IMG/VR virus record: IMGVR_UViG_2526164649_000017
Origin: a virus
Taxonomy: Duplodnaviria > Heunggongvirae > Uroviricota > Caudoviricetes
DNA length: 10,224 nucleotides
Direction: 5' to 3' (one strand)
The position numbers and the translations under genes were made by a program. Shown piece by piece: positions 2,476 to 3,297 of the stretch (the first letter of the stretch is position 1; every line of letters starts with the position of its first letter). The notes beneath the pieces were generated by a model. The model saw only the letters and a list, made by a program, of their open reading frames with translations. It made no database searches and was not told where the DNA came from.

Positions 2476-3297
2476 ATGAAACTGGAAGATTTACCGAAAT
2501 ACTACTCCCCAAAATCCCCTGGCCTGACCGATGCATCGGCCTCAACGTCAAAAGATGCGCTGAGTATCACTGATGTGATGGCCGCGCAGGGCATGATACA
2601 GAATCGGGCTGAGATGGGTTTTTCTGCGTTCCTGGGGAAAATGGGCATCAGTATGAATGACAGGGCGCGGGCAACAGAATTACTGGCAGATTATGCACTC
2701 AGTCGGTGCGATCGTGTGGCGGCGTTGAGAAAACTTCCGGCAGAAATAAAACCGGTAGTGATGCGCATTATGGCTTCGTACGCTTTTGAGGATTATGCCC
2801 GCAGCGCAGCGAGTAAAAAGCAGTGCCCTTGTTGCTATGGGGAAAAATTTATTGAAAGCATAGTTTTTACAAACAAGATCCAGTATCCGGATGGTAAGCC
2901 GCCGGTATGGGCAAAGTGTACGAAAGGTGTGTATCCGTCTTACTGGGAAGAATGGAAAAAAGTCAGGGAGGTGGTAAAAGTTGCCTGTCCGGAGTGTGGC
3001 GGAAAGGGTGAGGTTTCCACCGCCTGTAAGGATTGCCGTGGGCGTGGTGTCGCCATTCATCGTGAAGAGTCGGTAAAACGTGGTATGCCTGTTATCAGAG
3101 ACTGCCAGCGTTGTGGTGGTCGTGGCTATGAAAGACTACCATCAACGGAGGCATTTAATGCTATATGCGAGGTGACAAACCAGATAACACGCGCGTCATG
3201 GGAAAAAACAGTTAAGAAATTTTATGATGCGCTGGTGACCCGGTTTGATATTGAAGAAGCATGGGCTGAGCGGCAGTTAAAAAAGGTAACTAGGTAA
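2476..3297 (+). CDS. Putative late-operon antiterminator (Q-like), with four CxxCxGxG-type zinc-finger repeats
   Basis: 273-aa ORF directly after rusA and directly before a promoter/terminator pair and phage tRNAs, the canonical Q position. Contains CPCCYGEK, CPECGGKG, CKDCRGRG and CQRCGGRG. Assignment is by position and zinc-binding character, not verified homology. Confidence 0.55.
   Translation: MKLEDLPKYYSPKSPGLTDASASTSKDALSITDVMAAQGMIQNRAEMGFSAFLGKMGISMNDRARATELLADYALSRCDRVAALRKLPAEIKPVVMRIMASYAFEDYARSAASKKQCPCCYGEKFIESIVFTNKIQYPDGKPPVWAKCTKGVYPSYWEEWKKVREVVKVACPECGGKGEVSTACKDCRGRGVAIHREESVKRGMPVIRDCQRCGGRGYERLPSTEAFNAICEVTNQITRASWEKTVKKFYDALVTRFDIEEAWAERQLKKVTR

Follow-up and report, generated by a model that had tools for sequence, protein, structure and literature searches.

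A probable long-form antiterminator of the Q-lambda family with four CxxCxGxG-type motifs in a Qin-like lambdoid prophage

The window analysed here, a stretch of 10,224 nucleotides of Caudoviricetes DNA (IMG/VR record IMGVR_UViG_2526164649_000017), carries at positions 2476..3297 of the + strand a gene of 273 codons plus stop, whose product combines the genomic position of a phage Q gene with cysteine repeats reminiscent of those of DnaJ. This combination raises the question of what the protein is: an earlier note, made from the sequence, had proposed either a poorly characterised type of antiterminator or a gene in the Q slot that does something else. The Q slot itself is readily recognised. 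The genes hok (72-227), rem (445-696), a DUF968/YdfU-like gene (1043-2092) and rusA (2105-2461) lie upstream, and the order hok, rem, DUF968, rusA, Q is that of Qin-like prophages; the Q gene follows the DUF968 (YdfU-like) gene and rusA and stands ahead of a promoter, a terminator and a tRNA block, as its assignment to this slot had implied.

Translation of 2476-3297 bore out the count of repeats previously reported for the 273-amino-acid protein, namely one CxxCxGxx and three CxxCxGxG. Motif 1 is CPCCYGEK (C117 and C120, from aa 117; 2824..2847), motif 2 is CPECGGKG (C171 and C174, from aa 171; 2986..3009), motif 3 is CKDCRGRG (C184 and C187, from aa 184; 3025..3048) and motif 4 is CQRCGGRG (C210 and C213, from aa 210; 3103..3126), all encoded on the + strand. 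The interval first given for the repeats, 2821-3126, is exact at its end and starts one codon (Q116) ahead of the first cysteine. The four-motif pattern is far above chance and is kept in homologues. When the Q protein was shuffled 200,000 times, at least one CxxCxGxG appeared in 0.2% of the shuffles, at least four CxxC in 0.06%, and three or more CxxCxGxG in none of them. Across 65 homologues with 54 to 97% identity, ten positions of motifs 2, 3 and 4 are invariant (C171, C174, G176, C184, C187, G189, C210, C213, G215 and G217), and in motif 1 the conservation of C117, C120 and G122 is 90% or higher. The family consensus of motif 1 is a full CxxCxGxG, where the copy in the window reads CPCCYGEK.

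The protein matches the PF03589 profile ("Antitermination protein Q") with 183.2 bits (cut-off 26.7, E 9.5e-55) and PHROG 127 (Q-like) with an E value of 1e-110. Passages of Yin et al. 2022 (PMC9388147) distinguish three unrelated families of Q proteins, PF03589 being the Q-lambda family, which within the literature considered is the one with the most structural coverage. The best PDB sequence matches are indeed Q-lambda entries, 7ubm_Q (E 4e-40) followed by 4mo1 and 7ubj. The phmmer alignment falls into two blocks, residues 1-113 of the query pairing with Q-lambda 1-113 and residues 182-273 with Q-lambda 116-207, and the identity is 34% over aa 46-113 and 38% over both aa 182-221 and aa 222-273. 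The most lambda-like part is the N-terminal segment (aa 1-45; 2476..2610, + strand), which is 53% identical to Q-lambda 1-45 and which we take to be the part that refolds in Q-lambda. The helical body with a helix-turn-helix known from the Q-lambda crystal structures is likewise found in the protein. The lambda-type arm, a predicted zinc ribbon at aa 182-221 (3019..3138, + strand), corresponds to Q-lambda 116-155 and contains motifs 3 and 4, whose cysteines C184, C187, C210 and C213 align with the four ribbon cysteines of Q-lambda (118, 121, 144 and 147, respectively). Q-lambda has two motifs of its own at this place, CRDCHGTG and CGRCKGVG, and two of the four repeats are therefore a standard part of Q-lambda. 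According to the part of PMC9388147 that deals with the arm of Q-lambda, it is a shuffled zinc ribbon of type I that touches both RNA polymerase, at the beta' zinc-binding domain, and the Q-binding element (QBE), at positions 11-13.

The idea of a poorly characterised antiterminator, or of another function, does not survive this comparison: the protein is a clear PF03589 member (183 bits), Q-lambda has two CxxCxGxG motifs, and phi80 Q and YdfT share the same architecture. Strong homology to a non-regulatory protein family was not what the profile search returned, the match being to PF03589. Taken as a whole, the earlier note was right about the Q slot and the DnaJ-like motif, and wrong in concluding to an uncharacterised type or something else. 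The best explanation, which we hold to be very probable as a whole, is that the open reading frame encodes a late-gene antiterminator of the Q-lambda family, carried by a Qin-like lambdoid prophage, working by a lambda-type mechanism and bearing two consecutive zinc sites. Membership of the family is read directly from the profile and structure matches; antitermination by this protein is what we infer from them.

Both the family and the four-motif architecture are already known. A homology search with the Q protein gave more than 600 matches across Enterobacterales, among them two E. coli clusters named "antitermination protein" with 3,739 and 4,648 member sequences, and the insertion that holds motifs 1 and 2 also occurs in phi80 Q, in YdfT/QuuQ of the K-12 Qin prophage and in thousands of proteins of enterobacterial prophages. 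The discovery value is accordingly small, this being a textbook family annotated as "antitermination protein" in thousands of E. coli genomes. A full-text literature search returned nothing specific to the four-motif form of Q (the study of phi80 Q being known through papers that cite it), and no experiment on the 273-amino-acid Q or its promoter was found in the literature. That phi80 study is Guo and Roberts 2004, which concerned the DNA-binding regions of phi80 Q and is cited in the portion of PMC9388147 considered.

Among phages, the record mEp460_ev081 holds a copy of Q that is 98.9% identical to that of the window. From rem through Q to the tRNAs this record closely matches the window, and the Q of the parental mEp460 is just 38.6% identical, which suggests a recombinant origin for mEp460_ev081. 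In the same record (LR597641.1) the label "Phage antitermination protein Q" sits on a DUF968/YdfU-like gene at 1568-2617; this appears to be a mislabel, the true Q homologue lying at 3001-3822.

A lambda-like arrangement of late promoter, pause element and terminator is predicted directly downstream of the gene. The putative pR' (3303..3330, + strand), recognised by alignment with the lambda and the annotated phi80 pR', consists of a -35 element TTGATT (3303-3308), a 16-bp spacer (3309-3324) and a -10 element TAAATT (3325-3330), and the spacer, TTTCCGGAATCTGTGG, is the candidate QBE. It is followed, 6 nt after the -10, by the putative sigma70-dependent pause element AATGAT plus GGG (3337..3345, + strand), with the predicted +1 at 3337. 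The lambda counterpart reads TTGACT, 17 bp, TAAATT, 6 nt and AACGAT-GGG, and AATGAT-GGG has the position and spacing of the lambda AACGAT (+1 to +6) plus GGG. Lambda Q requires a sigma70-dependent pause at +16, which is induced by AACGAT in combination with the GGG discriminator-like sequence (PMC4005639). In a generic sigma70 promoter scan the pR' candidate scores 8 of 12, under the threshold of 9, and was not called; it is therefore accepted only by its alignment to the pR' of lambda and phi80.

The intrinsic terminator tR' (3378..3403, + strand), with a stem AACCCGC / GCGGGTT followed by T6, was found by a terminator scan, and RNA folding of 3337-3406 likewise gives a terminal hairpin followed by a U tract. 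A regular expression for perfect-stem terminators gave no match, but the dedicated scan and the folding did find the terminator of the window. Terminators are annotated at the same place in phi80 and ES18, and can be seen by eye in the sequences of K-12 Qin, mEp460 and Klebsiella RCIP0098. The window shares the whole pattern of -35, spacer, -10, -10-like hexamer and GGG, placed immediately behind the stop codon of Q, with lambda and with the long-form Q genes of phi80, K-12 Qin, mEp460, mEp460_ev081, E. coli 1EC213 and Klebsiella RCIP0098. The predicted terminated pR' transcript (3337-3403) would be about 65 nt long with three hairpins (MFE -19.6 kcal/mol, z -1.6, which is not exceptional). 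By analogy with lambda 6S and StxS of Stx phages (PMC7547250), such a transcript might build up in lysogens as a small RNA.

With these elements in place, a mechanism of the Q-lambda type is the most likely one for the 273-amino-acid Q, and by homology it may be pictured as follows. Binding to the QBE in the pR' spacer would involve both the body, with its helix-turn-helix, and the zinc-ribbon arm (C184, C187, C210, C213). RNA polymerase would meanwhile be waiting at a sigma70-dependent pause, brought about by AATGAT-GGG (+1 to +9). The arm of Q would contact the beta' zinc-binding domain, and Q would load on the sigma-paused complex. A refolding of Q induced by NusA, like the one that sections of PMC9388147 describe for Q-lambda, where the refolded protein becomes a nozzle in the RNA-exit channel, would then form such a nozzle on the exit channel here. 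Polymerase so modified would pass the terminator tR' (3378-3403) and go on to transcribe the tRNAs and the genes for lysis and morphogenesis.

What is left downstream for such a polymerase to transcribe bears on the role of Q in this genome. A tRNA gene with a CAT anticodon lies at 3441..3516 (+ strand); ARAGORN calls it tRNA-Met(CAT), and RefSeq annotates the identical gene of a 98.6% identical relative as tRNA-Ile, so that it is probably of the lysidine-modified Ile2 type. A tRNA-Arg (TCT) follows at 3618..3694 (+ strand), and both tRNAs, directly after tR', would fall under Q control. Further on, the small RNA STnc100 (RF02076; 4391-4580, + strand; 132 bits in Rfam, gathering score 47) sits between a DUF3927 open reading frame and an iraM homologue (4606-4941; IraM 162 bits), the latter on the strand opposite to the tRNAs and STnc100. 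In the 98.6% identical relative, an intact prophage of E. coli 1EC213, Q and the tRNAs are followed by holin, lysozyme, Rz and terminase genes. In the window, an IS3 element interrupts the late operon's class II holin gene (5651-5900) after about 58 codons, at about 5866. This first IS3 copy (5900-7056, minus strand) and a second, inverted one (7855-8951, plus strand), whose orfA is N-terminally truncated, enclose a 171-amino-acid internal fragment of a gene for an MFS metabolite/H+ symporter (7208-7723, minus strand), and the ensemble resembles an IS structure that is composite or has been rearranged. Immediately after the second copy comes an IS2 element (8978-10224; TnpA/InsC 276 bits), whose orfB runs off the end of the window.

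With the late operon interrupted by IS3 within the holin gene, Q may lack a productive target in the window, and the gene could be a functionless relic of a defective prophage in this genome, intact by chance or because the decay is recent. This view draws on the cut at about 5866 and on the IS3 and IS2 elements standing in place of the lysis and morphogenesis genes of the relative, as well as on the exact holin-IS3 junction occurring in a single species-representative genome, that of E. coli ECMA0423 (CP178302.1). On the other side, the Q gene has kept its full length and is matched at 97-99% identity by very abundant E. coli clusters and by a phage copy; pR', the pause element and the terminator have been preserved intact; and the two tRNAs are still found downstream, oriented like Q, and could be controlled by it, as could STnc100 and the short open reading frames between the tRNAs and the holin. 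We would give the relic reading a real chance, if somewhat less than an even one, and it is in any case a statement about the role of the gene in its host rather than about the identity of the protein. Whatever that role, the window offers a clean example of an intact Q cassette whose late operon has been lost to IS insertions.

The reading of the protein as a lambda-type Q has also to accommodate motifs 1 and 2, for which Q-lambda has no counterpart. They belong to an insertion of 68 residues relative to Q-lambda (aa 114-181; 2815..3018, + strand), visible as the gap in the phmmer alignment and 53% identical to the insertion of phi80 Q. In the AlphaFold2 model, two strands (125-136 and 159-170) form a long beta-hairpin with a lower-confidence tip, motif 1 lying just ahead of the hairpin and motif 2 just behind it, at its base. 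In a survey based on family representatives at 50% identity, motifs 1 and 2 are present or absent jointly, bar two atypical sequences, and, depending on the family member, they are separated by a spacer as short as about 10 or as long as about 57 residues. The survey distinguishes a short form of Q, lambda-like, of about 200-210 amino acids and without motifs 1 and 2, an intermediate form of 231-244 amino acids with about 10-20 residues from the end of motif 1 to motif 2, and a long form of about 250-280 amino acids in which this distance reaches about 57 residues; these versions differ only in the extra zinc module.

The joint occurrence of motifs 1 and 2 and their variable spacer point to one zinc site carrying a hairpin of variable length. 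The four motifs most likely correspond to two zinc sites in succession: the lambda-type ribbon, built from motifs 3 and 4, and a second ribbon, built from motifs 1 and 2, with its variable beta-hairpin most likely inserted where the body meets the arm. The pairing of motif 1 with motif 2 is deduced from their co-occurrence and from the predicted secondary structure. Variation is also seen in motif 3: in about half of the Q-lambda family (representatives P0121-P0270; aa 184-187) it reads CxC (CR-CxGxG) instead of CxxC; phi80 Q is among the carriers, as are some of the short lambda-like forms.

Does this additional module change the way the protein works? In the portion of PMC9388147 that concerns the loading complex, residues 110-112, 117 and 122-126 of Q-lambda touch the beta' zinc-binding domain. 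The insertion falls between Q-lambda residues 113 and 116, inside this contact stretch, and the geometry of loading could therefore differ from that of lambda. One can accordingly conceive of a Q-lambda homologue whose added zinc module alters its working: the module might reach additional DNA upstream, giving a longer or different QBE, it might touch RNA polymerase (the beta' zinc-binding domain or the flap) or NusA in a new way, or it might change the requirement for NusA. Besides the place of the insertion, such a view could invoke the strong conservation of the module, with C171, C174 and G176 invariant, the existence of long, intermediate and absent versions, suggestive of a tunable surface, and promoter spacers in the cassettes of long-form Q proteins that are unlike that of lambda. 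The geometry of the cassette (-10, -10-like element, GGG and terminator) is, however, the same as in lambda, and body, arm and N-terminus are conserved; we regard an altered mechanism as rather improbable. We are equally tentative about a more specific version, which we think unlikely, in which the second ribbon is a specificity module, making an extra contact with DNA, RNA polymerase or NusA that alters loading or QBE recognition, and in which the short form of lambda and P22 arose by deletion. Sequence and fold searches of the PDB found no long-form Q among the solved structures, and a module at the contact point with RNA polymerase that lacks a solved structure in the PDB searched poses a modest but well-defined structural question.

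There remains the resemblance to DnaJ, which is real as far as the zinc knuckles go. The DnaJ_CXXCXGXG profile (PF00684) matches the Q protein with an E value of 2e-6 over profile positions 1-52 of 65, its 28.4 bits staying below the cut-off of 32.7; TIGR02349 (DnaJ) gives 1.4e-6 with 27.9 bits against a cut-off of 377, and the anti-TRAP protein RtpA 1.8e-4. With hhalign, the Q family profile aligned to an approximate sequence of the E. coli DnaJ Cys-rich region with 80% probability and an E value of 1.4e-5, pairing motifs 2, 3 and 4 of Q with motifs 1, 2 and 3 of this approximate DnaJ sequence. The precomputed Pfam tables list PF03589 together with PF00684 for most homologues, and PF27659.1 is also found in the precomputed annotations of most of them. 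Pfam and NCBIfam scans of the Q protein detected neither a J domain nor a DnaJ C-terminal domain, and the HPD tripeptide is absent from the protein, which has a single histidine in total. The comparison with DnaJ was thus apt for the zinc-knuckle module and goes no further, the J domain being absent and the match to the Pfam DnaJ profile falling under its threshold. In DnaJ the zinc centres are nested, motif 1 pairing with motif 4 and motif 2 with motif 3. For Q, a consecutive arrangement is suggested instead, since motifs 3 and 4 correspond to the lambda ribbon and motifs 1 and 2 occur together.

That the gene in the Q slot encodes a DnaJ-like zinc-finger chaperone, or some other non-regulatory zinc protein, is extremely improbable: the profile and hhalign matches just given, and the NCBI name "chaperone protein DnaJ" borne by one homologue, speak for it, but the DnaJ scores lie under the curated cut-offs, the likeness spans only about 50 zinc-knuckle residues, the J domain, HPD tripeptide and DnaJ C-terminal domain are missing, everything outside the insertion aligns with Q-lambda, and Q-lambda, a proven antiterminator, itself has two such motifs. 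A chaperone identity is effectively refuted by the full-length homology to Q-lambda. The homologue in question (P0031, Serratia quinivorans) is a member of the Q family, 58% identical to the window protein, and its name is probably a misannotation prompted by the CxxCxGxG motifs. The Q protein has zinc knuckles of the DnaJ/anti-TRAP type and is not a DnaJ; the Q-lambda arm normally contains CxxCxGxG repeats, the phi80/Qin-type form has twice as many, and their presence should not prompt a "DnaJ" annotation.

Set beside known systems, the Q of the window shares with the Cys-rich domain of DnaJ (PF00684; PDB 1EXK) and with anti-TRAP (PDB 2BX9) the CxxCxGxG zinc-knuckle signature, and departs from DnaJ in its probable pairing of sites, 1 with 2 and 3 with 4 rather than nested. 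Lambda Q (PDB 4MO1, 7UBJ-7UBN) is homologous to residues 1-113 and 182-273, with about 29-40% identity by region (53% for aa 1-45), and is alike in its four-cysteine ribbon of two CxxCxGxG, its N-terminus, the position of its gene and the layout of pR', pause element and terminator. Compared with it, the window protein has 68 extra residues (114-181) with two more CxxC and a long predicted beta-hairpin, and the promoter spacer, its candidate QBE, differs in sequence.

The Q of phi80 (gp17, JX871397) comes closer in architecture, being 41% identical over the full length, with the same insertion and four Cys motifs, those of the insertion reading CDCCDGGG and CKPCNGKG. Its motif 3 is CxC where the window has CxxC, and its -10 lies 8 nt from the pause element, as against 6 nt in the window. 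The Q site annotated at the phi80 pR' is TCGCGGA (TTCCGGA in the window), followed by AACGCT-GGG and a terminator, and the nin-region genes upstream are unlike those of the window. YdfT/QuuQ of K-12 Qin (b1559), annotated as "putative antitermination protein Q", is 40% identical, has four Cys motifs and a like cassette downstream, and shares the neighbourhood of hokD, rem and ydfU (DUF968), then Q. It is shorter, at 250 amino acids, as is the hairpin that separates its motifs 1 and 2; its gene has no rusA upstream and is followed by cold-shock genes instead of tRNAs.
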